A stretch of 64,000 nt of DNA from Escherichia coli. Lineage in GTDB: Bacteria > Pseudomonadota > Gammaproteobacteria > Enterobacterales > Enterobacteriaceae. The stretch lies in NCBI RefSeq assembly GCF_013122565.1, contig NZ_CP053258.1. One strand, given 5' to 3'. Every line of letters begins with the position of its first letter. The stretch's first letter is position 1. Positions 34,166 to 50,811 of this stretch are shown piece after piece. The notes below the pieces were generated by a model that worked only from the letters and a program-made list of their open reading frames with translations, did no database searches and was not told the DNA's origin. Position numbers and translations under genes: made by a program.

Positions 34166-34405
34166 CATTTATTGATTGCATATCTTATTTGTAATATCAG
34201 AACGAACAAATCATTCATAATTAAAATATCATATTGAATTGATATTTTAATTATGAATATTTCTGTTTTTAAAATGCTTCATTTATCAGGCTTTTTTCTT
34301 ATTTTTAATGCTGTAATTCAATTCATATTGAAGGGTTCTCGTAAAATGTAAATAATTACTACGTAGGACTTTTGTTTTGTAGTTTTTACGTCACAAGGGA
34401 TTATA

Positions 34406-37099
34406 ATGAAATTAAATATATTTACTAAATCTATGATTGGTATGGGGCTGGTGTGTTCTGCTCTGCCTGCATTTGCTATTGAAGCATGGAATAACCAACA
34501 AGGTGGTAATAAATATCAGGTTATTTTCGATGGCAAAATTTATGAAAATGCCTGGTGGGTTTCTTCTACAAATTGCCCGGGAAAAGCGAAAGCAAATGAT
34601 GCAACTAACCCGTGGCGTTTAAAGCGTACCGCGACAGCTGCTGAAATTAGTCAGTTTGGCAATACACTTTCCTGCGAAAAGAGCGGTAGCTCATCGTCTT
34701 CAACTTCAAATACGCCAGCATCTAATACGCCGGCTAATGGCGGTTCGGCTACACCAGCACAGGGCACTGTTCCGTCTAATTCTTCTGTAGTTGCCTGGAA
34801 TAAACAGCAGGGCGGTCAGACCTGGTATGTCGTCTTTAATGGTGCGGTATATAAAAATGCCTGGTGGGTAGCCTCTTCTAACTGCCCGGGTGATGCGAAA
34901 GGCAATGATGCCAGCAACCCATGGCGTTATGTTCGTGCCGCTACGGCAACGGAAATCTCAGAAACCAGTAATCCACAGTCCTGTACTTCAGCACCACAGC
35001 CTGCACCGGATGTGAAACCGGCACCGGACGTTAAACCGGCTCCTGATGTTCAGCCAGCCCCGGCTGATAAGTCAAACGACAACTATGCTGTCGCAGCCTG
35101 GAAAGGTCAGGAAGGTTCTTCTACATGGTACGTTATCTACAACGGCGGCATTTATAAGAACGCCTGGTGGGTAGGCGCGGCAAATTGCCCAGGCGATGCG
35201 AAAGAAAACGATGCCAGCAACCCATGGCGTTATGTTCGCGCGGCAACGGCAACAGAAATCAGCCAGTATGGTAACCCAGGCTCCTGTTCCGTTAAGCCTG
35301 ATAATAATGGCGGTGCTGTGACTCCGGTTGATCCAACTCCGGAAACTCCGGTTACCCCAACTCCGGATAACAACGAGCCATCAACACCAGCGGATAGCGG
35401 TAACGATTACTCATTGCAAGCGTGGAGCGGCCAGGAAGGTAGCGAAATTTACCATGTTATTTTCAATGGTAATGTTTACAAGAATGCCTGGTGGGTTGGT
35501 TCTAAAGATTGCCCACGGGGTACCAGCGCTGAAAACTCCAATAACCCATGGCGTCTCGTGCGCACAGCTACCGCTGCGGAAATGAGTCAGTATGGTAACC
35601 CGACTACCTGTGAAATTGATAATGGCGGCGTCATTGTTGCGGATGGTTTCCAGGCCAGCAAAGCGTACAGCGCAAACAGCATCGTAGATTATAACGATGC
35701 ACATTATAAAACCTCTGTCGATCAAGACGCATGGGGCTTTGTCCCGGGCGGCGATAACCCGTGGAAGAAATACGAACCGGCGAAAGCATGGTCCGCTTCC
35801 ACCGTGTACTTGAAAGGTGATCGCGTTGTTGTTGATGGGCAGGCTTATGAAGCGCTGTTCTGGACGCAAAGTGACAACCCTGCTCTGGTTGCGAACCAAA
35901 ACGCCACCGGTAGCAATAGCCGCCCGTGGAAGCCGTTAGGTAAGGCTCAGAGCTATAGCAACGAAGAGCTGAATAATGCGCCGCAGTTTAATCCAGAAAC
36001 GCTTTATGCCAGTGATACGCTGATTCGTTTTAACGGTGAGAACTACATTTCTCAGAGTAAAGTGCAGAAAGTTTCCCCTTCTGACAGCAACCCGTGGCGT
36101 GTCTTTGTTGACTGGACCGGAACCAAAGAACGTGTAGGTACGCCGAAGAAAGCGTGGCCGAAACACGTTTATGCACCGTATGTCGACTTTACGCTGAATA
36201 CGATCCCGGATCTGGCTGCGCTGGCTAAGAATCATAACGTCAACCACTTCACGCTGGCGTTTGTGGTGAGTAAAGATGCGAACACCTGTCTGCCGACATG
36301 GGGTACCGCTTACGGTATGCAGAATTACGCTCAGTACAGCAAAATCAAAGCTCTGCGTGAGGCTGGCGGCGATGTGATGCTGTCTATCGGTGGTGCTAAC
36401 AACGCTCCGCTGGCTGCTTCCTGTAAGAACGTAGACGATCTGATGCAGCATTATTATGACATCGTTGATAACCTGAACCTCAAAGTCCTGGACTTCGATA
36501 TCGAAGGCACCTGGGTTGCGGATCAGGCATCTATTGAACGTCGTAACCTTGCTGTGAAGAAAGTGCAGGATAAATGGAAGTCAGAAGGCAAAGATATTGC
36601 TATCTGGTATACCTTGCCAATTCTGCCGACTGGCCTGACGCCGGAAGGGATGAATGTCCTGAGCGATGCCAAAGCGAAAGGTGTTGAGCTGGCGGGTGTG
36701 AACGTGATGACAATGGATTACGGTAACGCGATTTGTCAGTCTGCAAATACCGAAGGTCAGAACATCCACGGTAAGTGTGCTACGTCTGCGATTGCCAGCC
36801 TGCATGCGCAGTTGAAAGGCCTCTACGGCAATAAGAGCGATGCTGAAATTGACGCCATGATGGGTACCACGCCGATGGTTGGCGTGAACGACGTTCAGGG
36901 CGAGGTGTTCTATCTCTCTGATGCTCGTCTGGTCATGCAGGATGCGCAGAAGCGTAATCTCGGTATGGTTGGTATCTGGTCAATCGCGCGCGACCTGCCG
37001 GGCGGCACTAACCTGTCTCCGGAATTCCACGGTCTGACTAAAGAGCAGGCTCCGAAGTACGCATTTAGCGAAATCTTCGCGCCGTTTACTAAGCAATAA
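34406..37099 (+). CDS. chiA: Periplasmic endochitinase/lysozyme-like ChiA (GH18 catalytic domain with four N-terminal chitin-binding repeats)
   Basis: 897-aa ORF-track protein; signal peptide; four repeats of the AW(N/K)xQxGxxxYxVxFNGxxYKNAWWV...NPWR module; GH18 motif LDFDIEG. Confidence 0.95.
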   Translation: MKLNIFTKSMIGMGLVCSALPAFAIEAWNNQQGGNKYQVIFDGKIYENAWWVSSTNCPGKAKANDATNPWRLKRTATAAEISQFGNTLSCEKSGSSSSSTSNTPASNTPANGGSATPAQGTVPSNSSVVAWNKQQGGQTWYVVFNGAVYKNAWWVASSNCPGDAKGNDASNPWRYVRAATATEISETSNPQSCTSAPQPAPDVKPAPDVKPAPDVQPAPADKSNDNYAVAAWKGQEGSSTWYVIYNGGIYKNAWWVGAANCPGDAKENDASNPWRYVRAATATEISQYGNPGSCSVKPDNNGGAVTPVDPTPETPVTPTPDNNEPSTPADSGNDYSLQAWSGQEGSEIYHVIFNGNVYKNAWWVGSKDCPRGTSAENSNNPWRLVRTATAAEMSQYGNPTTCEIDNGGVIVADGFQASKAYSANSIVDYNDAHYKTSVDQDAWGFVPGGDNPWKKYEPAKAWSASTVYLKGDRVVVDGQAYEALFWTQSDNPALVANQNATGSNSRPWKPLGKAQSYSNEELNNAPQFNPETLYASDTLIRFNGENYISQSKVQKVSPSDSNPWRVFVDWTGTKERVGTPKKAWPKHVYAPYVDFTLNTIPDLAALAKNHNVNHFTLAFVVSKDANTCLPTWGTAYGMQNYAQYSKIKALREAGGDVMLSIGGANNAPLAASCKNVDDLMQHYYDIVDNLNLKVLDFDIEGTWVADQASIERRNLAVKKVQDKWKSEGKDIAIWYTLPILPTGLTPEGMNVLSDAKAKGVELAGVNVMTMDYGNAICQSANTEGQNIHGKCATSAIASLHAQLKGLYGNKSDAEIDAMMGTTPMVGVNDVQGEVFYLSDARLVMQDAQKRNLGMVGIWSIARDLPGGTNLSPEFHGLTKEQAPKYAFSEIFAPFTKQ
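35000..35071 (+). repeat. In-frame 18-bp tandem repeat encoding the Pro-rich linker (PAPDVK)x2-PAPDVQ-PAPADK within chiA
   Basis: Four consecutive 18-nt units read from sequence. Confidence 0.8.
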
Positions 37100-37106
37100 A
37101 TGTGTT

Positions 37107-37137
37107 GGCGATACCTTCCGGTATCGCCGCATTTTTT
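37107..37137 (+). terminator. Intrinsic terminator downstream of chiA
   Basis: 9-bp stem ggcgatacc/ggtatcgcc, loop ttcc, followed by gcatttttt. Confidence 0.85.
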
Positions 37138-37140
37138 GTC

Positions 37141-37173
37141 AATGGGCTACTTTTGGTAGCCCATTATTTTTAT
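37141..37173 (+). terminator. Second hairpin with T-run immediately after the chiA terminator (tandem terminator)
   Basis: 10-bp stem aatgggctac/gtagcccatt, loop ttttg, followed by atttttatt. Confidence 0.5.
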
Positions 37174-37267
37174 TCATATTTCTATTTTTTGCTTAAAAAA
37201 GAGTCTTTCCGTAATTGAAATAAGAACTATTTTCATTTATTTTTGAGGAAAGTATACGGGAGTCTCT

Positions 37268-37462
37268 ATGTACGTTTGTCTTTGTAATGGTATCAGCGAT
37301 AAAAAAATTCGTCAGGCTGTGCGCCAGTTTTCCCCCCACTCGTTCCAGCAATTAAAAAAATTTATTCCGGTCGGCAATCAGTGCGGTAAATGTATCCGGG
37401 CCGCGCGTGAAGTGATGGAGGATGAATTAATGCAGTTGCCGGAGTTTAAGGAGTCCGCATAA
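37268..37462 (+). CDS. bfd: Bacterioferritin-associated ferredoxin ([2Fe-2S])
   Basis: 64-aa ORF-track protein with CLC...CGKC cysteine pattern. Confidence 0.93.
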   Translation: MYVCLCNGISDKKIRQAVRQFSPHSFQQLKKFIPVGNQCGKCIRAAREVMEDELMQLPEFKESA

Positions 37463-37533
37463 ACGGAGTGTGTTTTTTGACTTACTCGTAAGCCGTTCTA
37501 CGCTTCAAAGAGTGGAAGCGAAGGAGTCAAAAA

Positions 37534-38010
37534 ATGAAAGGTGATACTAAAGTTATAAATTATCTCAACAAACTGTTGGGAAATGAGCTTGTCGCAATCA
37601 ATCAGTACTTTCTCCATGCCCGGATGTTTAAAAACTGGGGCCTCAAACGTCTCAATGATGTGGAGTATCATGAATCCATTGATGAGATGAAACATGCCGA
37701 TCGTTATATTGAGCGCATTCTTTTTCTGGAAGGTCTTCCAAACTTACAGGACCTGGGCAAACTGAACATTGGTGAAGATGTTGAGGAAATGCTGCGTTCT
37801 GATCTGGCACTTGAGCTGGATGGCGCGAAGAATTTGCGTGAGGCAATTGGTTATGCCGATAGCGTTCATGATTACGTCAGCCGCGATATGATGATAGAAA
37901 TTTTGCGCGATGAAGAAGGCCATATCGACTGGCTGGAAACGGAACTTGATCTGATTCAGAAGATGGGCCTGCAAAATTATCTGCAAGCACAGATCCGCGA
38001 AGAAGGTTGA
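37534..38010 (+). CDS. bfr: Bacterioferritin
   Basis: 158-aa ORF-track protein; SD aaggag. Confidence 0.97.
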
Positions 38011-38017
38011 GCCGTGT

Positions 38018-38037
38018 CGGGAGGGTGAACCCTCCCG
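38018..38037. other. Stem-loop between convergent bfr and gspO, adjacent to the gspO stop
   Basis: 8-bp stem cgggaggg/ccctcccg, loop tgaa; no U-tract on either strand. Confidence 0.45.
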
Positions 38038-38038
38038 G

Positions 38039-38716
38039 TTAATAAGAGATCCAGGCCAGATACCCCAGGTTTATCATGCTGCCGAGCGCAAGCCATGGGC
38101 CGAATGCAATAGTGGTTATAGTCCGGCGTTGCAGAAGTTGTGAAACGATGGCGTAACCAATGCCACCCAGCGAGGCAATCAGCAGTATCATTGGCAACGT
38201 TTGCCAGCCACACCACGCGCCTGCAGCGGCCAGTAGCTTGAAATCACCGTAGCCCAATCCCTCTTTGTGACAAACTAACCAGACGCCCCAGTAAACACAC
38301 CACAGCACCCCATAGCCAGCTACCGCGCCGTAAACCGCATCATGTAGATCAATTAATCCAGACTGCGCATTAAATACTAAGCCAAGCCAGAGCAGCGGTA
38401 AGGTGAGTTTGTCGGGCAGGAGCTGAGTGCGAAAATCAATAACACTGAGCGTGAGTGCGAAACAGAAATAGAGAAAGAGTGCGCCAGTCACTATGGGCGT
38501 GAAAGGTGCCAGGGCGCAGGCGATAGCAGCAGCAACGCAAAGTATCAGGGGCACTGTATCATGCCAGGCATATTTTTTTTGCCTGAAATGAACCAATACC
38601 TGGCGAAACGTTAACGCCGTTTTATCCTCCATAGGCGAGAGGTGATAGGCCATGGCATTAACAAAATAACCTGCAATAAAACCAATCAGAATGAAGAGCG
38701 GCAGTAGCATTGTCAT
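38039..38716 (-). CDS. gspO: Type II secretion prepilin peptidase (A24 family)
   Basis: 225-aa ORF-track polytopic membrane protein with prepilin-peptidase-like regions (VIDFRTQLLPD, GYGDFKL). Confidence 0.9.
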   Translation of the reverse strand: MTMLLPLFILIGFIAGYFVNAMAYHLSPMEDKTALTFRQVLVHFRQKKYAWHDTVPLILCVAAAIACALAPFTPIVTGALFLYFCFALTLSVIDFRTQLLPDKLTLPLLWLGLVFNAQSGLIDLHDAVYGAVAGYGVLWCVYWGVWLVCHKEGLGYGDFKLLAAAGAWCGWQTLPMILLIASLGGIGYAIVSQLLQRRTITTIAFGPWLALGSMINLGYLAWISY

Positions 38717-39177
38717 TATTGTTGCTCCCTGAAGGACAAATGCCTGAGGGTGATCTCTTCGTTTCCGGCAAGAGTAAACTGAAGGTCTTCAATAACAATA
38801 CCGTATGTTATCTGTACCTTAGTGAGCCAGTGGGAGACATTTTCGAGGGGAGCTGTGACAGGATGAATTGTCAGAGTATTGTCCGGGCCGTTTTCCAGCG
38901 TGATAGCCAAATTCTCACGTTTTGCTTCCTCGAGAAGGATATTTTTGATGGGCTGCGTAAGCGCAGGATGACCAAGTAAACCATGGGTGCTCGCTTGATC
39001 CTGCATCCATTTGATGTCCTTCTTAATTTTTTGCGCGTGGGACTGATGCTCTGCAATGTAGGTATCTATCGGTTTTATCACCCCAAGCCAACAAAAAACG
39101 CCGAGCGAGAGAACCGCCAGTGCCGCAACGATCTGTTTTTCCGATGTGGATTTTTCTGCCCACCATGATTTAATCAT
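38716..39177 (-). CDS. gspM: Type II secretion system protein M
   Basis: ORF-track frame 38716..39201; start placed at ATG 39177 (MIKSWW, 153 aa), preceded by AAGGAG and forming ATGA overlap with the gspL stop. Confidence 0.85.
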   Translation of the reverse strand: MIKSWWAEKSTSEKQIVAALAVLSLGVFCWLGVIKPIDTYIAEHQSHAQKIKKDIKWMQDQASTHGLLGHPALTQPIKNILLEEAKRENLAITLENGPDNTLTIHPVTAPLENVSHWLTKVQITYGIVIEDLQFTLAGNEEITLRHLSFREQQ

Positions 39178-40340
39178 TTCCCTGAGCTCCTTACTGTCCA
39201 TACACCACTAAGCGGATCTTTTCCTGTTTTTTCCATCGGAAGCCAGGACTGTGTTAATTCACAGAAACGATCGATATTGGCTTCACTCTTAGCACTCATT
39301 TTTAAGGTCAGCGACTTTTGCTTTTGGCTATAATTCGCTTCCATTAACTGCAGTTCAGGATGTTCCAGTAAGAGCGTTTGCAAATGATGGAGCAACGGCA
39401 CAGCTTCAGGATATTGCTGAGCGAGCTGCTGCTTAAAGTAAAAACGAAAGTTGTGGGTGCGTTTGATCTGCGGGAAATAACGTTGCCAGGTTTCTTGCTG
39501 TTGTTGCTGAAGTTGATCTTCAATCTTAAGCGTTTGCCAGAGCGCGATGCCCCGGCTGCCAACAAAAGAAAGAATGGCGAGAACGAGACAGCTTACTGCC
39601 AGGCGGGCGAGCCATTTTCCCGATTTGCTTACAGTTTTCTGTTTACGAAAAACACCATGCAGCATGTCATAGCGCTGGAATGCAATATCGGCAGAATACA
39701 AACTCAGTGATGGTATTTCAGGATGCTGGATAAGTGGATTGGTCGCTGCAACGCCGTGAGGTGCTACACCATAACAAAGCATATTCTCAGGCGGAAACTG
39801 GGCAGCAAGATGCTGTAACCAGTGTTCATCCAGTTCATTGAAGGCATGTGCGGCACTGCGAATAAGCCAGCTTGTTTGCTGGTTAACCAGAGTCCAGCTA
39901 TCTACTTCCCAGGGAAGATAGCAGCCATCTGGCAAAACCCGCGTCACGTTGAGTCCGGCAGTATGTAAACGCTCAAGATAGCGACTGAGTTTCTCCGACT
40001 GAATGCCTATCACCTCGACACTTTCGTTTTGTTTATCGACAACCGTCCAGTGCCAATTTTGGTTGGCGTCGGGTAATGTCTCCTCCGCCAACCACTGTAA
40101 TGTTTGCGCGGTGAGTTTGTATTTGGCGTTGGGCAGCGTGAGGGAACGATATAACAGACCCTCAGGTGGGATCAAAAGGTGAACATTTCCGGCACCAGGC
40201 TGATCGGCCAGCGACTCCAGCGGAAGATCGTCTGTGAGCGTATGTACCGAAGATACGCTATCTGCGGAGAACGTCATCCATTCCCAATGCTTACGCAGCG
40301 TCGAGGAAGAACGTATTACCATCAACGATTCAGGCATCAC
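39174..40340 (-). CDS. gspL: Type II secretion system protein L
   Basis: 388-aa ORF-track protein (or 387 from the second Met). Confidence 0.88.
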   Translation of the reverse strand: MMPESLMVIRSSSTLRKHWEWMTFSADSVSSVHTLTDDLPLESLADQPGAGNVHLLIPPEGLLYRSLTLPNAKYKLTAQTLQWLAEETLPDANQNWHWTVVDKQNESVEVIGIQSEKLSRYLERLHTAGLNVTRVLPDGCYLPWEVDSWTLVNQQTSWLIRSAAHAFNELDEHWLQHLAAQFPPENMLCYGVAPHGVAATNPLIQHPEIPSLSLYSADIAFQRYDMLHGVFRKQKTVSKSGKWLARLAVSCLVLAILSFVGSRGIALWQTLKIEDQLQQQQQETWQRYFPQIKRTHNFRFYFKQQLAQQYPEAVPLLHHLQTLLLEHPELQLMEANYSQKQKSLTLKMSAKSEANIDRFCELTQSWLPMEKTGKDPLSGVWTVRSSGK

Positions 40341-40351
40341 GATCCTTATGA

Positions 40352-41335
40352 TTAGTAGAGTTGCAGCGTACGCCGATAGATTTGGGCGCTCTGCTGTTTA
40401 CGGTTGAAAAAAATATGGCTTTGCCATCCCTGGGATTGTTCGTCGCTGATACTTTCCGTACTCAGCGTAAAATAGCGGCTATAGGGAAAGAGATGCCCTT
40501 TCACCTGAGCAACCAGGGGCTTCACGCCGGAGAAATCCTGCTGCGCCCAGTAAAGAAATGCTTCCGTGGTTAGCCAGCCTTCCCTCGGCTTTTTTTGTAA
40601 TAAGACCCGAGCGTCAGCATCCGTGATGTTATTGAGGAATAACGCTCTGAAGAGCGGAATATCGTTCTCCGTTAGCATATTAAGATTGATGCTAAGTTCC
40701 TTAGTCGGGAGAACGCAGACATACGGGATAAGCCGCTGATAGATGTTTTCGGTTATGCCTTTTATCTGACGCAATTCACCGGTCAGAAAAAGCATCTGAT
40801 TGGCGCTATGGCGAGGCGGCGTCTGGCTTTGGTAAAAGTTATCTTCTGCGCCGTGAAAGCGTGGCGAATCATCGGCATCAATATAGTCAGCGATTGATTG
40901 CACGAGCTCATCGGTGTTTCCGCGATCGATACCGGCGTTAATCAGCAGCGCACTGAATACCTGGGCGGGGAAATCAGGGGAAGCCAGCGGGTCGTCAGAG
41001 ATTTTTGCTAACGCATTGAGATTAAAACAGTGCTGGGCATCGCGTAACTGCCACTTCACTGTATTGCCATCTTCCAGCTGCAACTGTTGTGGCTGTGCCC
41101 AGTACTGCTGCAACGTGGTCTGTCTGTCGTTATCTTTAACGTCCTGGGTGAGGCTGGCAAGCGCAAGTTTCTCCGCCAGTTCAATATCATATTGCCGTTG
41201 CAAATGATGGTTTACCTGGCGGGTTCGCTGAAGCTGGCTGTGAAAACTGAGCGTCATGTCTGCTGCCAGAGCAGCCATGAGCGCCAGTAACATGAGTACA
41301 ATGAGCAGCGCGACGCCGCGTTGTTCATTATTCAT
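40352..41335 (-). CDS. gspK: Type II secretion minor pseudopilin K
   Basis: 327-aa ORF-track protein with N-terminal hydrophobic segment. Confidence 0.9.
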   Translation of the reverse strand: MNNEQRGVALLIVLMLLALMAALAADMTLSFHSQLQRTRQVNHHLQRQYDIELAEKLALASLTQDVKDNDRQTTLQQYWAQPQQLQLEDGNTVKWQLRDAQHCFNLNALAKISDDPLASPDFPAQVFSALLINAGIDRGNTDELVQSIADYIDADDSPRFHGAEDNFYQSQTPPRHSANQMLFLTGELRQIKGITENIYQRLIPYVCVLPTKELSINLNMLTENDIPLFRALFLNNITDADARVLLQKKPREGWLTTEAFLYWAQQDFSGVKPLVAQVKGHLFPYSRYFTLSTESISDEQSQGWQSHIFFNRKQQSAQIYRRTLQLY

Positions 41336-41915
41336 GGTTATTATTCCCGGCCTGCGTCTGAGCTGGCGACTCTTCTCTCGCTAACTGCTCAGGTAATGCA
41401 AAACGGCGCTGTAACACCCCATATTGCTGAGTCTGCAGATGTAACGTGACTGAGAGAGGAAGTTCCTGGCTTTCCCCGCTGTTACTTTCCATAAGAAAGC
41501 TCTCGACATGTTCCAGCATCGCCTGGGCGGGTTGATCCTTCCTGCCATCCACAGAAGTACGAACAGCACGGTAGAGCGTATGATTTCGTAGATACCAGTG
41601 AACTGTGAGTAAGGTTTGTGCTTCACTGAGAGGAGCCAGCGGATCGCGACTTTGCGTGGTAAAAATAGCTTCTTCACCCAACACCATGATCTTGTCCGTA
41701 CTCCGATTCCTCCGGGCGACCAATTGCAGGAGATCGTTATCAAGAATGGTGATGGTGCGCTGTAGCTGATTGAACTGCTGGATTTCTTTCTGTGAACGTT
41801 GATGCAACTCGGAAGCTTGCGAAAAAATCATAAACGCCAGCACGCTAAGCATTGAGAAAATCGCCAGCGCCGCCATGACCTCCAGCAATGTGAAACCCTG
41901 CTGGCGATTAATCAT
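41328..41915 (-). CDS. gspJ: Type II secretion minor pseudopilin J
   Basis: 195-aa ORF-track protein with prepilin-type N-terminus [10 protein letters not shown]. Confidence 0.9.
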
Positions 41916-42285
41916 CTTGTGCCTGCCCGGATTTATTATCGATGCTTTGATAACGCGTAAGCGAGGTTGTCTGACCGCTGGGTAATGTCACCGTTATGGT
42001 GCGTTCCAGAAGCGTGCCGTCTTTGCTTGAGTGGATATCGCTGCGCCAGTTCCACTCTTCGCCATTTATTAACTCTTTGCCAGAACTGGACGTGTTTTCC
42101 TCGTCGAATGAATCTTGTGACTGAAGCTGGTTATCCGCTATCCACAATGCCAGCGTCTCGTTGCGCATTCGCTCGATGGCATTTCGTTGCCCTTGCATAC
42201 TGCTCATTAAAGTCAGAGCAACAGCGGTGAAAATACTCATCGCCAGTAAGACTTCAAGCAGTGTCATCCCTGATTGTTTGTTCAT
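41908..42285 (-). CDS. gspI: Type II secretion minor pseudopilin I
   Basis: ORF-track frame 41908..42324; start placed at ATG 42285 ([19 protein letters not shown], 125 aa), ATGA overlap with gspH stop. Confidence 0.88.
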
Positions 42286-42791
42286 GGGCGGGTATCTCTG
42301 GCGAGCGTTTGATCCAGGGGCCATGAGCCTGAACAGACTAACGTCAGGAGCGGCTCACCGGTCCCGGCGTTAGCCATCAACAAAGAGAAGGGCGTGATTT
42401 GTCCGTCGGCCAGAATCACCACCTGTGGCTGGTTGCTGTCATCAGGTTTAAATGGCTGAAGATGAATTGAGAGTTCTTCATCCCAGTCATTTTGGCTCTC
42501 GTCTGCGGCATCTTCTTGTAATGGAACCCAGCGCCAGGCTGATGGTGTTTTGCCCGGTACCATAATGCGCCATGCTGAATCAGAGAAATGGATACCGACA
42601 GGCTGACCACTGAGCGTGGCGCGGTCGATGGCTAATTCAAGTGCAGCGGTAAACCGCGCCGCTGTTTCGCGCGCACGAGTGTTGGCGACATCCTCCCGAC
42701 CATATGTGAAGAGCACCACACTTGCCGTGATAGCGACCAGCGCCAGCACCAGCATCATCTCCAGCAGGGTAAACCCGCGTTGCTGATTCAT
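42282..42791 (-). CDS. gspH: Type II secretion minor pseudopilin H
   Basis: 169-aa ORF-track protein with prepilin-type N-terminus [10 protein letters not shown]. Confidence 0.9.
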
Positions 42792-42798
42792 CGCTGAC

Positions 42799-43236
42799 TT
42801 ACTTTTTCTTCTTGCTCAAACCCCAGTTGGTGATGTCGTCCTCGGTTCCCATTTCACCATCGGGCCCTGCTGAAAGCAGATCGTATGCACCATGTTCACC
42901 AGGATTAACGAGGACATAATCATTGCCCCAGGGATCGGCAGGCAGACGCTTGATATAACCTTCCTTGTTATAGTTTGCGGCCAGCGGTGGCAGTGTCGGC
43001 GCTTCGACTAAGGATTCAAGCCCCTGATTTGTGGTTGGATAGCGATGATTGTCGAGTTTGTACATATCAAGGGCGTTTTCCAGCGCCACAATATCGCTGA
43101 CGGCTTTTTGCTTATCCGCCTTTTCTTTATTGCCCATTAGGTTAGGAACCACCAGGCTGGCAAGTACGCCGATAATGACGATCACCACCATAATTTCCAG
43201 TAATGTAAAACCGCGTTGCTTATCCGTTGCGCGCAT
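42799..43236 (-). CDS. gspG: Type II secretion major pseudopilin G
   Basis: 145-aa ORF-track protein, prepilin N-terminus [21 protein letters not shown]. Confidence 0.93.
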   Translation of the reverse strand: MRATDKQRGFTLLEIMVVIVIIGVLASLVVPNLMGNKEKADKQKAVSDIVALENALDMYKLDNHRYPTTNQGLESLVEAPTLPPLAANYNKEGYIKRLPADPWGNDYVLVNPGEHGAYDLLSAGPDGEMGTEDDITNWGLSKKKK

Positions 43237-43245
43237 ATGCTTTCC

Positions 43246-44442
43246 TTAATTAATCAATGAGTTAAGTTGAAGAAGAGGTTGGAGTACCGACACGACAATA
43301 AACAGGACGATCAGTGCCATCGTAATAATGAGTGCTGGCTCGAAGATGGAGAGCGTTAAGGCGATCCGATTTTGTTGGAGTGTCTCTTGGTTATCTGCGG
43401 CTCTGACCATTAATGTGCCGAGCTGCCCGCTTTTTTCGCCAGAGGCCACCATGTAGAGCATCATCGGCGGGAAAATTGCGGTTTGTTCCAGCGAAAGATG
43501 AATGCTGTTACCCTGGCGAACGTTTTCTGCCGCATTTGCCAGACGCTGGCGAATTTCGAGGTTGCTGAGGCTTTCGGTGGACAAATTCATCCCATCCAGC
43601 AGAGGGACGCCGCTGGATTGCAAAATACTTAAAGTGCGGAGATAGCGTGCACTGTTAATGGCGCAAATCAGCGGGCCGATGAGCGCAACGCGCAGCAACA
43701 TGGCATGAAAACGGTGGCGGTTATTGCCGCGTTTTAACCAGAGCCAGAAACCTAAAGCGACAATAAACACTGTCGCTAATAATGTCGGGCCGGTACGTTG
43801 CAACGTGTCGCTCAGACCTAAAAGAATGCGTGTACTCATCGGCAGTTGCTGCTTCATATGCACGAACTGTTCGGTAATTTTGGGCACGACAGCAGTGAGG
43901 AGAATAATCACGACCACAATCGCCACCATAGTGAGCATGCAGGGGTAGATCATTGACTGAATGAGCTTATTGCGTATTTTCTGTCGGTTTTCATTGTAAT
44001 CAGCCAGCTTTTCCAACACCGGGGCCAGCAGCCCGCTTTTTTCGCCCGCTTTAACCAGGGTACGATAGAGCGAATCGAAAAGCGTGGGAAAATGCTGTAA
44101 TGCATCGGAAAGGGGATGCCCTTCAAGGATGGCGCTGCGTACTTGATTCAACACGTAAGCCAGTCGTTTATTACTACTTTGTTGACCAATTACGGCAAGG
44201 CTCTCTTCCAGGGGTAATGCCGCCGCGCTTAAGGTTGCCAACTGCCGGGTGAAAAGCGTCAGTTCACTATGGCTGATCCTCGGGCTACGTGTTTTTACTC
44301 CCGAACTTTTTTGGGGGCGAATATCCAGCAGGAAAAGCCCTTCTTCACGCAGCCGCAGTCGTGCCTGACGTTCATCGTTAGCATCAATGATCCCTTGCAA
44401 TTTTTGACCATCCTGGGTCATGGCGCGATAGCGATAATTCAT
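43246..44442 (-). CDS. gspF: Type II secretion inner-membrane platform protein F
   Basis: 398-aa ORF-track polytopic membrane protein. Confidence 0.93.
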
Positions 44443-45920
44443 GCTTCGCTCTCCAGTGTGGCGCTGGCGACGCGCATAACCTCATCCCAGGAGGTGTCAC
44501 CGTTTATCACTTTTTGCAGGCCATTTTTGATTAAGGCATTGTGTTGTTGCCGGACCAGTCGCTCCAGTGCTTGTTCATCCACATTTTCATGAATAGCGGC
44601 CCGCAATTCCGGCGTCACCACCATCATTTCGTGGATCGCCATGCGCCCCTGATAGCCGGATTGATGGCAATGAGGGCAGCCTACGGGAGTGCCAATTGTT
44701 GTCACCGCGAGCTGATGATATTTAAACATCTGCGCTTGTTGAGGGGATACGGGCGCGAATTGTCGGCATTGCGGACACAGACGACGAACTAGACGTTGCG
44801 CGATAATCCCTGCCAGTGAAGACGAAAGCAGGAATGATTCGACGCCCATGTCGCGGAGCCGGGTCACTGCGCCTGATGCACTGTTAGTGTGGAGTGTTGA
44901 GAGTACCAGATGGCCTGTGAGCGAGGCCTGAACCGCAATTTGCGCGGTTTCTGTATCACGAATTTCCCCCACCATGACGACATCCGGGTCCTGGCGAAGT
45001 ATGGCGCGCAGGCCGCGAGCGAAAGACATATCCACACGGGTATTCACCTGCGTTTGTCCTATGCCTTCCAGTTCATATTCCACGGGATCTTCTACCGTCA
45101 GAATATTGCGGCCGGGAGTATTCAGCGCCGAAAGAATGGCGTAGAGCGTGGTACTTTTACCGGAGCCTGTCGGTCCGGTCACCAGGATAATACCGTGTGG
45201 AAGCTGGATGAGATTTTCTAAATCCTGCTTATCCGCTGCCGTCATCCCCAGGTTGTTCAATGAAAGCTGGAGGCTGTTTTTATCCAGCAGACGGAGCACG
45301 GCACGTTCACCATAGATGGACGGCAGTGTGGATACGCGGACATCTATGTTACGTCGCCCGATACGCAAACTGATTCTTCCATCCTGTGGAATACGTTTTT
45401 CGGCGATATCAAGACGAGCCATGACCTTAATTCGGGAGATAAGCAGTGCCGCCAGTTTTTTGTTTGGCTGTAAAATTGTCCGCAGAACGCCGTCGATGCG
45501 AAAACGGATCGACATTGTTTTTTCATAGGTTTCAATGTGGATATCGGAGGCAGTTTCTTTGATGGCCTCACTCAAAATCGCATTGATCAAGCGGATAACC
45601 GGTGCCGCTGAATCTTCATTCAGGAGATCTTCATTTGCGGGCATCTCTTCCGAAAGCGAGAGAAGATCGACGGATTGATCGATATCCTGCGCAATCTGTT
45701 GCGACTCACCGGTATTCTGATGGAACACCGCTTCCAGCCGGGCTTCAAAATCAGCCTGTGACAAACTGGTCATGGTCTGGCACTGGCCAACCTGACGTTG
45801 AATATCGAGTAACCGCTCGAATGGCGTATCGGCGAGATAAATAATCTCGCCCTCTGAGTAGAGATAACCAATTCGTTGTGCCAGCGCCCAACTGGCTGGG
45901 TACGGTGAGTGAATTCTCAT
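44439..45920 (-). CDS. gspE: Type II secretion ATPase E
   Basis: 493-aa ORF-track protein with Walker [10 protein letters not shown] and C-terminal tetracysteine CPQC...CPHC. Confidence 0.95.
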
Positions 45921-45929
45921 CAGAATGCC

Positions 45930-47894
45930 TTACCGTGACGATGGCGCAGGGGCGTGACTGTTGAACGTGTTCTCATCCAGCACCGGCAAATCTTCCGAGC
46001 CAACCAGCGCTTTTGATTTCCCGTCGATTCGCAGCTGCTGCTCCTGACGGTAGCGGGTGTATTTCTCTTTTGACAGTGAGCGATAAACATCATCGTCACG
46101 GATAATCGTCGGGCGGATAAATACCATCAGGTTGCGTTTAGCGCGCTCGGTCGAGGTATAGCGAAAGAGTTGCCCCACTAAAGGAATATCGCCAAGCAGA
46201 GGAACCTTTGACACTTGCTCTTTAGAAAAATCATCCAGCAATCCGCCCAGGACCACCGTTTCACCGGTTTTAACCAGCACGGCGTTTTGAATAGTACGGG
46301 TGTTAAATGTCGGGCCGAGCGTCGAATTAGACGAAGAGTCAACGCTGGAAACCTCCTGCTCTATTTCGAGCAGTACCGCGTCGCCTTCATTGACCTGCGG
46401 AGTGACTTTGAGTTTTGTGCCCACCGTTTTGCGTTCGACGGTATTAAAGACATTATCCCCAGAAGTGGTCTGAGAGCCGGATAGCACCGGCACATCCTGG
46501 CCAACGTTGAAGGACGCGAGTTTATTATCCAGCGTTACGATGCTCGGGGTGGCGAGGATGTCATTTTTATTGTTACTGGCCAGCGCGGTAAGCAGTACGC
46601 CCCAGTCGCCATTGAAGAAGCCTGCGGCCATGCCGTTGTAGGCGCTAAACATATCCCAGGCAGGATTCGCGCTGGTGATCCCACCATTCTTTTTATAATC
46701 AGCCACACCTTGCGCAGCGTTAAAAATCGGTAATCCGGTATTGGTAAATTGCTGTGCGCCAACGTTTTTATTTGCCCATTGCACGCCGAGGTTGAGTCCA
46801 TTTCCATCCTGAACTTCGACGATGATTGCCTCAACCAGCACCTGTGCACGGCGAATATCCAGACGCGCAATTACCGTGGCGAGTTTTTCCTGGACGGACT
46901 GGTCAGCGGTAATGACCAACGAGTTGGTCTGTTCATCGGCGGTAATAGCCACATTATCCATCGCAGAAGTAGAAGAAGGCTTACGCGAATTCCCTTTTTC
47001 ATCTTTCAGCTTTTCGGAAACACCGGTTAGCACTTCCACCAGATTCGTGGCCTTGGCATATTTCAGGTAATAGACCCGGGTATTTCCTTCCTCGCTCTCT
47101 TCTACATCAAGGCTTTTCAGTAATGAAGTGATGCGCTGGCGTGCTTTTTCCGGCCCGCTGATGATAAGAGAGTTGGTTCGCTTATCCGCCACAATCTTCG
47201 CGGAAAGGAGGGCAGGCATCTGGCTTTTACCGTGGCTTTCGCTGATTAATTGATTAAGAATCTCGGCGAGATCTTCCGCTGACGCATATTCCAGATGAAT
47301 AATTTGCTGCTTCTCTGTGCCGATGACATCAACGCGCTTTATGACTTCAATCAGTTTATTAATGGTGGAGGCACGACCGGTCAGAATAAGAACGTTGGAG
47401 GGTTCATAATGCACAACATTACCGACGCTACCCGCATCCATCATCTGGCGCAGCAGGGGAGCCAGGTCACGAGCAGGAACGTTCTCAAGCGGTACGATTC
47501 GGGTGACCAACTCATCACCTACGCCTGGACGAGAACTGTCAGCAATCATCCCTGGCGATGTTTTTACATTAGCTGAGCGCACCACTTTCAGAAAACCATT
47601 GTCCAGCGTGATCACGGTATAACCGTAAAGATCAAGAATACTTAAAAAGAACTGGTAGTACTCCTGTTGGCTAAACGTATCATTACTGCGTACGGAAATG
47701 GTTCCCTGTACCGAAGGGTCGATCAGGATCGTTTTGCCAAGATGCTGACCCACTATTTCCACGAACTGGCGAATATCGGCGTTATTGAAGTTAGCGCCGT
47801 ATTGTTCGTTCTCAGAGTGCCCTGTACCAGGCATGAGTAGTGCTGCCAGCAAGCAGCAGGTGATTTTATTGAGTCCCTTCATTACGCTGTCCAT
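45930..47894 (-). CDS. gspD: Type II secretion outer-membrane secretin D
   Basis: 654-aa ORF-track protein with signal peptide; first ATG has AGGA 6 nt upstream; alternative start at 47882 gives 650 aa. Confidence 0.92.
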
Positions 47895-48681
47895 TCATTC
47901 CTGTAAGTTCCCCGACGGAAACATTTATCAAACGGGGTACGCCGTTGCGACGAATTGTAAACTGAGCACTTTGTTGAGTTAGCAGTAAACTTAATGCCTG
48001 TGAAACCTCATCAGGGTGGGTCAGCGAAAGATTATTGATCCTGAGGGCGATATCCCCTGGTTGTAGCAAGCTGGTGGTAAATGCATTGAGGCCCTTACGA
48101 GGGTTCAATCGAAGCCCGTATATCTGTTCTCCATCACGTATAGGCGTGGCGATAATATAATCAGCGAGTACATTTTGACTTTCCGAATCAGGCTGCTTGA
48201 TGATGTCAGGTAGCCCTGGATGGAGAGTTACTTTTTCGTAATGCCCGTGAGTTTCAAACACAACGCTGGTTTTATTTATTTTTCTAATAAACGTTCCCGG
48301 CGCTGACTCAAGGGCTTCGTTGAGGGCGTATCGCTTTTGCTCGCCCCCCTCATTAATTAAGACAAAAGAAGTCTCATCATTCGATGTGAGTACAATGCCA
48401 TTAAGCGCTATAGAGAGCTTAGGTGTTTCCTGATTAACTGCCACAGGATTTGCATCTTTTACCCCAGCATGATTTTCGTTACGCCATAAAGCGGCAAGGC
48501 TGAACTCAGACTGAAATGCATTTGTTGGTTGATTAATGATCTGTCCATTTTTAACTATAGTTGTATGGAAATAATTCACATTAAAAATAATCAGCCCTAT
48601 GCTTATAAATATAATCAATATATTGATGGCAGCATCTTTATTATGATTCGCCAGATGGAAGGGGAAACGTAGTGTGGGCAC
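47866..48681 (-). CDS. gspC: Type II secretion system protein C
   Basis: 271-aa ORF-track protein with one N-terminal TM segment; first gene of the gspC-O operon. Confidence 0.9.
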
Positions 48682-48860
48682 GATGTATGTTCTAATAAAA
48701 TAGATTGGGTGGGTTGTATATTGACGTTAGTATAAATAGTATTAATGCCGCTTGCATGAATCAAGCAAAATTTATTTATATTAGTAATATGTATTTAATT
48801 AATAAATGCATACATTATTTTTATGATTAAGGATAATCAATAATTAAAACAGGAAGTTCT

Positions 48861-50330
48861 ATGTCTACGAGAAGAGAAGTTATTCTTGCCTGGTTGCGTG
48901 AGAAACGTCAGACCTGGCGTCTGTGCTATTTGTTGGGTGAGGCTGGAAGTGGAAAAACCTGGCTGGCGCAGCAATTACAAAAAGATAAACATCGCCGTGT
49001 GATTACTTTAAGCCTCGTTGTTTCCTGGCAAGGTAAGGCCGCATGGATCGTTACCGACGATAACGCGGCTGAACAGGGCTGCCGTGACAGCGCCTGGACG
49101 CGAGATGAGATGGCGGGGCAATTACTGCATGCGCTTCATCGAACTGATAGTCGCTGCCCTCTTATTATTATTGAAAATGCTCACCTGAATCACCGCCGGA
49201 TACTTGATGATCTCCAACGCGCGATATCTCTTATTCCTGACGGTCAATTTTTGCTGATCGGCAGACCCGATCGAAAAGTCGAACGTGATTTTAAAAAACA
49301 GGGCATTGAACTTGTCTCGACAGGACGTCTAACGGAGCACGAACTTAAGGCTAGTATCCTTGAAGGTCAGAATATTGACCAACCCGATCTCCTTTTAACC
49401 GCCAGTGTTCTGAAACGAATAGCTTTATTATGTCGGGGCGATCGCAGAAAGCTGGCGCTTGCCGGCGAAACAATTAGCTTATTACAGCAAGCCGAGCAGA
49501 CCAGCGTTTTCACAGCAAAACAATGGCGAATGATTTACCGCATATTGGGTGATAACCGCCCCCGGAAAATGCAGCTTGCCGTGGTAATGAGTGGAACCAT
49601 TATCGCTATTACCTGTGGTTGGCTACTGCTGTCCTCTTTCACAGCTCCGTTCCCCGTTCCTGCGTGGCTGGTACCCGTAACGCCAGTAGTTAAACAAGAT
49701 ATGACTAAGGATATTGCTCATGTGGTGATGCGCGATAGTGAGGCGCTAAGCGTGTTATACGGCGTATGGGGGTACGAGGTCCCAGCTGATTCGGCCTGGT
49801 GCGATCAGGCAGTAAGAGCGGGGCTGGCATGTAAAAGTGGGAATGCTTCTTTACAAACATTGGTAGATCAGAATTTGCCCTGGATCGCATCGCTTAAAGT
49901 CGGGGACAAAAAATTGCCTGTTGTGGTCGTTCGCGTCGGTGAGGCTACCGTTGATGTCCTCGTAGGTCAGCAAACGTGGACGCTGACACATAAATGGTTT
50001 GAGTCGGTATGGACGGGTGATTATCTTCTGTTGTGGAAAATGTCGCCGGAAGGGGAGAGTACCATTACGCGTGATAGCAGCGAGGAAGAGATTCTCTGGC
50101 TGGAAACGATGTTAAACCGTGCATTGCATATTTCGACAGAACCTTCGGCGGAGTGGCGTCCCTTGTTGGTAGAAAAAATAAAGCAATTTCAAAAAAGCCA
50201 CCACTTGAAAACTGACGGTGTTGTTGGCTTTTCAACCTTAGTACATCTCTGGCAGGTGGCAGGGGAGAGTGCCTACTTATATCGGGATGAAGCAAATATT
50301 TCCCCGGAAACAACAGTGAAGGGGAAATGA
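48861..50330 (+). CDS. gspA: Type II secretion accessory protein A (ExeA-like AAA ATPase with periplasmic domain)
   Basis: 489-aa ORF-track protein; Walker A GEAGSGKT; divergent from gspC. Confidence 0.92.
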   Translation: MSTRREVILAWLREKRQTWRLCYLLGEAGSGKTWLAQQLQKDKHRRVITLSLVVSWQGKAAWIVTDDNAAEQGCRDSAWTRDEMAGQLLHALHRTDSRCPLIIIENAHLNHRRILDDLQRAISLIPDGQFLLIGRPDRKVERDFKKQGIELVSTGRLTEHELKASILEGQNIDQPDLLLTASVLKRIALLCRGDRRKLALAGETISLLQQAEQTSVFTAKQWRMIYRILGDNRPRKMQLAVVMSGTIIAITCGWLLLSSFTAPFPVPAWLVPVTPVVKQDMTKDIAHVVMRDSEALSVLYGVWGYEVPADSAWCDQAVRAGLACKSGNASLQTLVDQNLPWIASLKVGDKKLPVVVVRVGEATVDVLVGQQTWTLTHKWFESVWTGDYLLLWKMSPEGESTITRDSSEEEILWLETMLNRALHISTEPSAEWRPLLVEKIKQFQKSHHLKTDGVVGFSTLVHLWQVAGESAYLYRDEANISPETTVKGK

Positions 50331-50331
50331 C

Positions 50332-50751
50332 ATGTTTGAATTCTATATCGCCGCGCGTGAGCAGAAAGAAACAGGTCACCCTGGTATCTTCTCCCGACAA
50401 AAACACAGCACCATAATATATGTCATTTGTTTATTACTGATTTGCCTGTGGTTTGCAGGAATGGTGCTGGTTGGTGGGTATGCCAGGCAGCTATGGGTGC
50501 TTTGGATAGTAAAAGCAGAAGTCACTGTAGAGGCTGAAACGCCCGCTTTTAAACAATCAACACAACACTATTTCTTCAAAAAACAGCCACTCCCCGTCGT
50601 CGAATCCGTCGAGGAGGAAGATGATCCAGGCGTCGCGGTTGAGAATGCCCCCTCTTCTTCTGAAGACGAAGAAAATACTGTGGAAGAAAGCGACGAGAAA
50701 GCCGGTTTAAGAGAGCGTGTTAAAAATGCGCTGAACGAACTTGAGAGATAA
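50332..50751 (+). CDS. gspB: Type II secretion accessory protein B (ExeB-like)
   Basis: 139-aa ORF-track protein with single TM segment and acidic C-terminus. Confidence 0.88.
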   Translation: MFEFYIAAREQKETGHPGIFSRQKHSTIIYVICLLLICLWFAGMVLVGGYARQLWVLWIVKAEVTVEAETPAFKQSTQHYFFKKQPLPVVESVEEEDDPGVAVENAPSSSEDEENTVEESDEKAGLRERVKNALNELER

Positions 50752-50783
50752 CCCGAAGGCTGTTTACTTTACTAGCAATACGC

Positions 50784-50811
50784 TTGCGTTCGGTGGTTAA
50801 GTATGTATAAT
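50784..50811 (+). promoter_or_regulatory. S10 operon promoter (-35 TTGCGT, 16-bp spacer, -10 TATAAT)
   Basis: Hexamers at 50784..50789 and 50806..50811; predicted transcript start about 170 nt upstream of rpsJ. Confidence 0.7.

Follow-up and report, generated by a model that had tools for sequence, protein, structure and literature searches.

The window, that is, the whole 64,000-nucleotide stretch of Escherichia coli DNA analysed here, carries the chromosomal, chitinase-secreting T2SS-alpha operon gspC-O, of which gspO is the final gene. The gene order is chiA, bfd and bfr, followed on the opposite strand by gspO, gspM, gspL and so on to gspC, and then by gspA and gspB. The principal genes are as follows:

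34406..37099, plus strand: chiA, an intact ORF annotated as an 897-aa chitinase, the known T2SS-alpha substrate (PMC3707838)
38039..38716, minus strand: gspO, a 225-codon ORF with an ATG start, the prepilin peptidase gene of the T2SS-alpha operon
38716..48681, minus strand: gspM, L, K, J, I, H, G, F, E, D and C, the rest of the operon upstream of gspO, all intact ORFs named after the annotation of the matching E. coli locus
40352..43236, minus strand: the pseudopilin genes gspG, H, I, J and K, ORFs with the PF07963 N_methyl motif and T2SS G/H/I/J/K domains

The gspO product is an exact match to NCBI protein WP_171460262.1 ("prepilin peptidase GspO", E. coli), and the region shares 98.6% nucleotide identity with annotated E. 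coli chromosomes in which this gene is gspO. GspO of E. coli K-12 (also HofD/HopD on old maps) comes from the same gene, with 225 amino acids, a position after gspM and bfr as its neighbor; the window protein is 97-98% identical to other E. coli alleles at the amino-acid level, with allelic differences only. The window gene is the long-characterised E. coli gspO, encoding the T2SS-alpha prepilin peptidase. No in-frame extension exists upstream, the ATG at 38716 abutting the gspM stop codon. An NCBIfam scan of GspO returned zero families at E<=1, and no clear foreign signal was found in the base composition of the island (GC 0.45-0.52).

In K-12, GspO is functional in the secretion of ChiA via T2SS-alpha (PMC3707838). 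A second paper, citing Francetic & Pugsley 1996 for prepilin cleavage, describes GspO as a functional enzyme (PMC4971541); transcription of gspO is very low under laboratory conditions (PMC4971541). Every operon gene and chiA (34406-37099) are intact in the window, yet the complete genome that matches best, UTME-7 (L001 5908-8600), has a chiA with a frameshift annotation; thus, in some strains the secreted substrate is decaying although the secretion system is kept.

The peptidase part of the protein was delimited by profile search and alignment:

38147..38473, minus strand: Peptidase_A24 domain PF01478, residues 82-190 (E 2.7e-30, 105.3 bits versus a cutoff of 26.5)
38435..38437, minus strand: codon of the first catalytic aspartate, D94 (VID in VIDFRTQLLPD), invariant and aligned with PilD D149
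38243..38254, minus strand: GYGD motif with the second catalytic aspartate, D158; G155, G157 and D158 are invariant, and D158 aligns with PilD D213

Both aspartates are invariant across a 39-sequence alignment, in agreement with the earlier note, which had described the downstream catalytic motifs as retained. They are separated by 64 residues in GspO and by an equal distance in Pseudomonas aeruginosa PilD, the bifunctional leader peptidase/N-methyltransferase, with which GspO shares 36% identity and whose D149 and D213 align with D94 and D158 (the PilD sequence aligned here matches PMC3584216 in its length, 290 aa, and in the numbering of Cys72/75/97/100). With the family profile, the two aspartates including the GxGD motif, polytopic helices and class III substrates all found, GspO is a type IV prepilin peptidase of MEROPS family A24A.

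The leaders of the five pseudopilins, with a slash between positions -1 and +1, are MRATDKQRG/FTLLE (GspG), MNQQRG/FTLLE, MNKQSG/MTLLE, MINRQQG/FTLLE and MNNEQRG/VALL (GspK). Those of GspG, H, I and J are class III signal peptides of the G/F(M)TLLE type accompanied by PF07963 (Gly at -1, a hydrophobic residue at +1 and Glu at +5). From the operon and these leaders we infer that the system's own pseudopilins are the substrates of GspO. The longest ORF of gspI (window 41908-42324, 138 aa) overlaps gspH and has its first codon 13 codons upstream of the canonical leader MNKQSG/MTLLE; translation probably begins instead at the internal ATG at 42285, for a product of 125 aa.

The point raised by the earlier note was that the segment following the first transmembrane helix of this 225-aa protein, HLSPMEDKTALTFRQVLVHFRQKKYAWHDTVP, is short and devoid of the zinc-binding cysteines found in many relatives. 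The ORF at 38039..38716 on the minus strand contains this stretch exactly, and the motif is indeed missing: GspO has no Cys in residues 1-59, no CxxC and no PF06750. Its only cysteines are at residues 60, 67, 85, 140, 149 and 169. The Pfam search found PF01478 as the sole domain, and PF06750 (A24_N_bact; IPR010627) was not detected in GspO even at E<=1, whereas the positive controls in the same scan (the 254-aa orthologue P0024, the Klebsiella protein P0050 and E. coli PppA) scored 95-118 bits with E values of 3e-27 to 3e-34. The note had also allowed for a Cys motif hidden in another frame. In all six frames of window 38350-38800 there is no CxxC...CxxC pair; the sole CxxC, an unpaired CHYC, lies on the other strand.

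The structures of window GspO and of its syntenic orthologue P0024 were modelled with AlphaFold2. The relevant features of the N-terminal part of GspO, with the limits taken from the model, are:

38639..38704, minus strand: predicted membrane helix 1, residues 5-26
38567..38638, minus strand: shortened, Cys-free first cytoplasmic loop, residues 27-50, SPMEDKTALTFRQVLVHFRQKKYA, also marked by the alignment gap relative to the orthologue
38510..38566, minus strand: predicted membrane helix 2, residues 51-69, retained

The GspO model (mean pLDDT 90.6, pTM 0.83) predicts eight long helices plus a short one in the loop, and that of P0024 (pLDDT 89.0, pTM 0.85) has the same eight-helix set, in agreement with the eight membrane segments described for prepilin peptidases (PMC10191384). 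The difference between the two models is confined to the first cytoplasmic loop, which spans 50 residues in P0024 (33-82) versus 24 in GspO (27-50). In P0024 the loop holds both CxxC motifs together with paired beta-bridges and a couple of short helices, the make-up one would expect of a zinc ribbon; in GspO it holds one short helix. Residues 27-50 of GspO are what is left of the zinc-binding CxxC-x21-CxxC loop, and the missing part is an internal segment of this loop, not a whole N-terminal domain. The description of GspO as a "minimal peptidase" in the earlier note thus holds insofar as the tetracysteine loop is lost and the peptidase is kept, but "minimal" overstates the case, since eight predicted membrane helices are retained. 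A sequence search of solved structures with GspO gave chance matches only (E 0.25 or worse), and a Foldseek search of the GspO model against the PDB returned nothing below E 0.9 and did not retrieve archaeal FlaK.

Relative to orthologues, about 26-31 residues of the first loop are missing from GspO (the overall length difference from P0024 is 29 residues), and all four zinc-ligand positions are without Cys. The Gly and basic residue that precede Cys3 in orthologues (G-R/K-C) have no equivalent in GspO under either alignment. The ends of the deletion are only approximate, the position of the MAFFT gap shifting with the sequence set in two runs: the segment YAWHDTVPLIL of GspO pairs in one case with LAWYDNIPLLS, which follows the first CxxC, and in the other with IAWRYPILEL, which follows the second one. 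A scan of single-gap placements had a flat optimum in which the gap follows residues 33-47. That 25 residues were cleanly excised between the two similar half-motifs is therefore a speculation. DNA alignment of the gspO genes of the window, L003 and L002 was too diverged to give deletion end-points or flanking repeats.

Within the codons of the residual loop (RQKKY) lies an A8 homopolymer (T8 on the plus strand; window 38573-38580). In a metagenomic variant of GspO (P0004, 227 aa) the sequence becomes garbled at precisely this tract, which suggests slippage or sequencing errors there.

The alignment of 39 sequences allowed the missing motif to be placed in its family context. Among the 34 relatives with an N-terminal part, 29 carry CxxC-x21-CxxC, with the two motifs 25 residues apart, and the remaining five (P0050, P0062, P0071, P0084 and P0089, of the Klebsiella, Serratia and Brenneria PulO/OutO type) combine a CxxC with an xRCC variant of the second zinc-knuckle motif. 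On these counts the absence in GspO is a true departure from the family and not chance. The xRCC variants in the PulO/OutO-like enzymes show that the cysteine pattern already varies among peptidases dedicated to T2SS. Only the E. coli protein, a protein designated P0009 and three Cedecea proteins are without either motif.

The earlier note had left room for the absence being universal in the subfamily; the nearest syntenic orthologues, however, keep the Cys motif. In a search of 5.8 billion proteins, the matches with at least 90% identity, all from E. coli, have PF01478 only, and in all of the full-length relatives that come next (53-62% identity, 254-258 aa) it is accompanied by PF06750. Full-length GspO orthologues of other Enterobacteriaceae have 254-260 aa, PF06750 and CxxC-x21-CxxC, and the peptidase part of such orthologues (P0024, the P0028 cluster with its Superficieibacter sp. 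member, and the Enterobacter and Kosakonia forms) is 56-65% identical to that of GspO. The match in operon position among them was established for P0024 (254 aa, locus L002), which is encoded next to gspE-F-G-H-I-J-K-L-M, bfr, bfd, an 893-aa chiA-like gene and tuf, in the order gspE to gspM, gspO, bfr, bfd, the chiA-like gene, tuf; its motifs are CCHC and CRYC, 25 residues apart. That syntenic orthologues keep PF06750 and CxxC-x21-CxxC shows that the loss of the zinc loop is derived and not universal in the subfamily.

P0009 (226 aa, 67% identity to GspO) has the same alignment gap as GspO and keeps a single vestigial Cys (SYCW) near the former motif position; its gene is flanked on one side by a gspM-like gene, at 63% identity, and on the other by bfr, at 88% nucleotide identity. 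The shared gap suggests that the shortening of the loop predates E. coli or arose in a close sister lineage. Among the matches listed from a scan of genome contigs (at least 600 stretches), most belong to distant Proteobacteria, with UBA5654 also present. A species-representative MAG labelled "Citrobacter sp. HRGM_Genome_0066" (L004, DXKH01000010.1) contains 6.4 kb that are 97.2% identical to the gspK-gspO-bfr-chiA stretch of the window, with a GspO 99% identical to that of the window; it has the look of E. coli DNA in a bin that is contaminated or wrongly labelled.

What remains of the N-terminal part has changed unevenly. In pairwise comparisons among three E. coli alleles, the replacements numbered 5, 3 and 4 in the N-terminal part and none in the C-terminal part; all fall within codons 1-75, while codons 76-225 show 4-7 synonymous changes and zero replacements (Fisher p 0.004-0.04). 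The window GspO differs from the other alleles by I11V, A21V, M22V, M29L, R45W and A70T. Between GspO and P0009, identity is 80% in the peptidase domain and 40% in the N-terminal part. The ratio of N-terminal to peptidase identity is 0.30-0.50 in pairs that include a short form (E. coli versus P0009 among them) and 0.69-0.90 in pairs of full-length orthologues, so that, measured against the protease domain, the N-terminal remnant is changing at about double the pace seen in full-length orthologues. This low ratio and the confinement of replacements to codons 1-75 point to drift of the remnant after the loss, and the pattern is the one expected if the N-terminal domain lost its function with the loop and the protease stayed under selection.

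Across 5426 complete E. coli genomes, gspO is present in 3158, is always 678 or 673 nt long and has the short form in all; the entire island is lacking from 2256 (42%). The tuf-rpsJ site of the species occurs as two deeply divergent haplotypes. The window type is a 16.6-kb block (window 34167-50804) with chiA, bfd, bfr, gspO-gspC and gspAB, found in 3158 of the 5426 genomes; the alternative (2256 genomes; L087, NZ_CP030331.1) has bfd, bfr and an orphan peptidase gene and is without chiA and the gsp genes. The bfr allele of the alternative haplotype has about 80-82% DNA identity, and the flanks of the haplotypes are 99.2-99.96% identical. Some E. coli (e.g. NZ_CP018991.1, whose gspO copy RefSeq annotates as frameshifted) have lost 5 bp at a GGCTT/GGCTT direct repeat, gspO nt 335-339 (window 38378-38382). 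This deletion probably explains the 133-aa "PilD" fragments (P0017) of O25b:H4 strains.

The peptidase of the alternative haplotype, HopD (Swiss-Prot HOPD_ECOLX; L087 9474-9941, minus strand, an intact ORF with no adjacent T2SS), is also found in Shigella dysenteriae and E. marmotae, and an analogous 159-aa orphan peptidase of Cedecea is encoded between rpsJ and bfr (L085 5001-5480). HopD (155 aa; E. coli, Shigella, E. marmotae) and the 158-159-aa Cedecea forms have Peptidase_A24 only, lie beside bfr and keep the catalytic Asp and GYGD; they occupy the chromosomal position of GspO in other E. coli strains and in Cedecea, and it is to these forms that the word "minimal" truly applies. They begin just before the first catalytic Asp, HopD being 41% identical to residues 80-215 of GspO. 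Unlike GspO, they are without the whole N-terminal part, the first two helices and an adjacent gsp operon.

E. coli PppA, the T2SS-beta enzyme, belongs to the same family and species and has both catalytic Asp motifs, but its 269 aa (33% identity to GspO) include a complete PF06750 (E 2.8e-34) and CPHC...CRDC, of which GspO has none. PilD has the zinc-binding loop with C72, C75, C97 and C100 that is required for methylation (PMC3584216); GspO does not. All three marks of a bifunctional PilD-type N-terminal domain that were looked for in GspO, namely PF06750, the four cysteines and the Gly-basic pair, are missing. GspO equally falls outside the peptidase-only class (TadV/CpaA, HopD; ~140-170 aa), as it keeps 75-80 N-terminal residues and two helices. 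TadV/CpaA of Tad (type IVc) pili and archaeal FlaK/PibD are prepilin aspartyl proteases that are naturally without the methylase domain (PMC10191384, PMC3584216), and they represent lineages separate from GspO that serve other machines. The nearest relatives of GspO being domain-bearing T2SS peptidases, its loss is recent and independent of the TadV/CpaA and FlaK/PibD lineages. Xanthomonas campestris is said to offer a precedent for a T2SS/T4P prepilin peptidase that can do without the cysteines: Hu et al. in 1995 reportedly found XpsO/PilD functional without the conserved cysteines. There the loop is said to be present with its cysteines substituted; in GspO the loop itself is shortened.

The functional reading draws on the biochemistry of PilD, whose four cysteines bind zinc and in which methylation is abolished when zinc is removed or the cysteines are substituted (PMC3584216). 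SAM-dependent N-methylation, but not leader cleavage, requires zinc, the cysteines and a neighboring Gly and basic residue, and some such proteases do not have the four-cysteine domain (PMC3584216). Prepilin peptidases without a methylase domain exist (TadV), and the purpose of the methylation is still unknown (PMC10191384). Taken with the reported function of GspO, the PilD data make it likely that the enzyme is a protease only and no longer methylates the pseudopilins. The literature searched contained neither a methylation assay of E. coli GspO nor an explicit statement that it is without the cysteines or the methyltransferase; Francetic & Pugsley 1996 is said to comment on its missing cysteines.

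The explanation that we favor overall, and consider very likely, is that GspO is a T2SS-alpha peptidase that has lost the zinc loop and N-methylation and kept the protease. On this reading GspO is an eight-helix inner-membrane aspartyl protease that uses D94 and D158 and cuts behind the conserved Gly to remove the short basic leaders of GspG, H, I, J and K. Its first cytoplasmic loop has been shortened, the rest of the N-terminal part has since drifted, and SAM-dependent N-methylation of the new N-terminus would have gone, leaving a protease only. The T2SS-alpha pseudopilins would stay unmethylated unless PppA, with its full domain, acts on them, if co-expressed.

GspO might instead still be bifunctional, with the methyltransferase site elsewhere in the membrane part and the zinc loop a dispensable ornament. 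Both helices that flank the loop are retained and confidently modelled (helices 1 and 2 could serve some role), the zinc site of PilD is probably structural or substrate-binding and not catalytic (PMC3584216), and the PulO/OutO relatives vary the second motif. The substrates also keep the "N_methyl" motif, which doubles as the cleavage signal and so is neutral on methylation. We regard continued bifunctionality as improbable: in PilD, methylation does not survive the loss of zinc or cysteines (PMC3584216), the Gly and basic residue adjoining Cys3, which methylation needs, are gone from GspO too, and the remnant is under relaxed constraint with PF06750 beyond detection at E<=1.

Very low transcription (PMC4971541), the 5-bp frameshift in some lineages, the 2256 of 5426 genomes without the island and the replacements accumulating in the N-terminal third of GspO would all suit a gene decaying in a cryptic, silenced operon, with the loss of the loop as a step of pseudogenisation. 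Against such decay, the ORF is intact in the window, as are the other operon genes and chiA, and gspO is near-full-length in 3144 complete genomes (a figure in which the 673-nt frameshifted copies are not counted apart). The peptidase domain shows synonymous differences only among the alleles compared and is far better conserved than the N-terminal part relative to P0009, and two papers report GspO as functional (PMC4971541, PMC3707838), which together leave pseudogenisation highly improbable. Negligible in comparison is an artefact, in which a wrong start, a frameshift or an assembly error would hide the Cys motif: the start abuts the gspM stop, no frame holds CxxC...CxxC, and a gene of identical length (678 nt) occurs in thousands of independent complete genomes. 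The six-frame search and this recurrence rule the artefact out.

Much of this is already known in outline: gspO has long been characterised, and prepilin peptidases without the cysteines or the methylase are documented (PMC3584216, PMC10191384). Any domain database shows that the domain is missing, a specialist would not be surprised, and the practical consequences are small. Mildly new are only the evolutionary points, namely the derived loss relative to syntenic orthologues, the drift of the remnant and the three-grade series at one locus. In protein collections, names of the leader peptidase / N-methyltransferase type are found on relatives of GspO, and for GspO this label, given by similarity, is probably wrong as to the second activity. 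Work in K-12 that uses GspO, and not PppA or the cognate PilD/PulO, may give unmethylated pilins or pseudopilins.

On balance we lean toward regarding T2SS-alpha as a naturally methylation-free T2SS and the tuf-rpsJ site as holding a graded series of enzymes across Enterobacteriaceae. The series may run from the full bifunctional enzyme through the loop-deleted form (E. coli GspO, P0009) to the peptidase-only orphan HopD. If this is true, the series would be a natural experiment on the role of pilin N-methylation, a question that is still open (PMC10191384).
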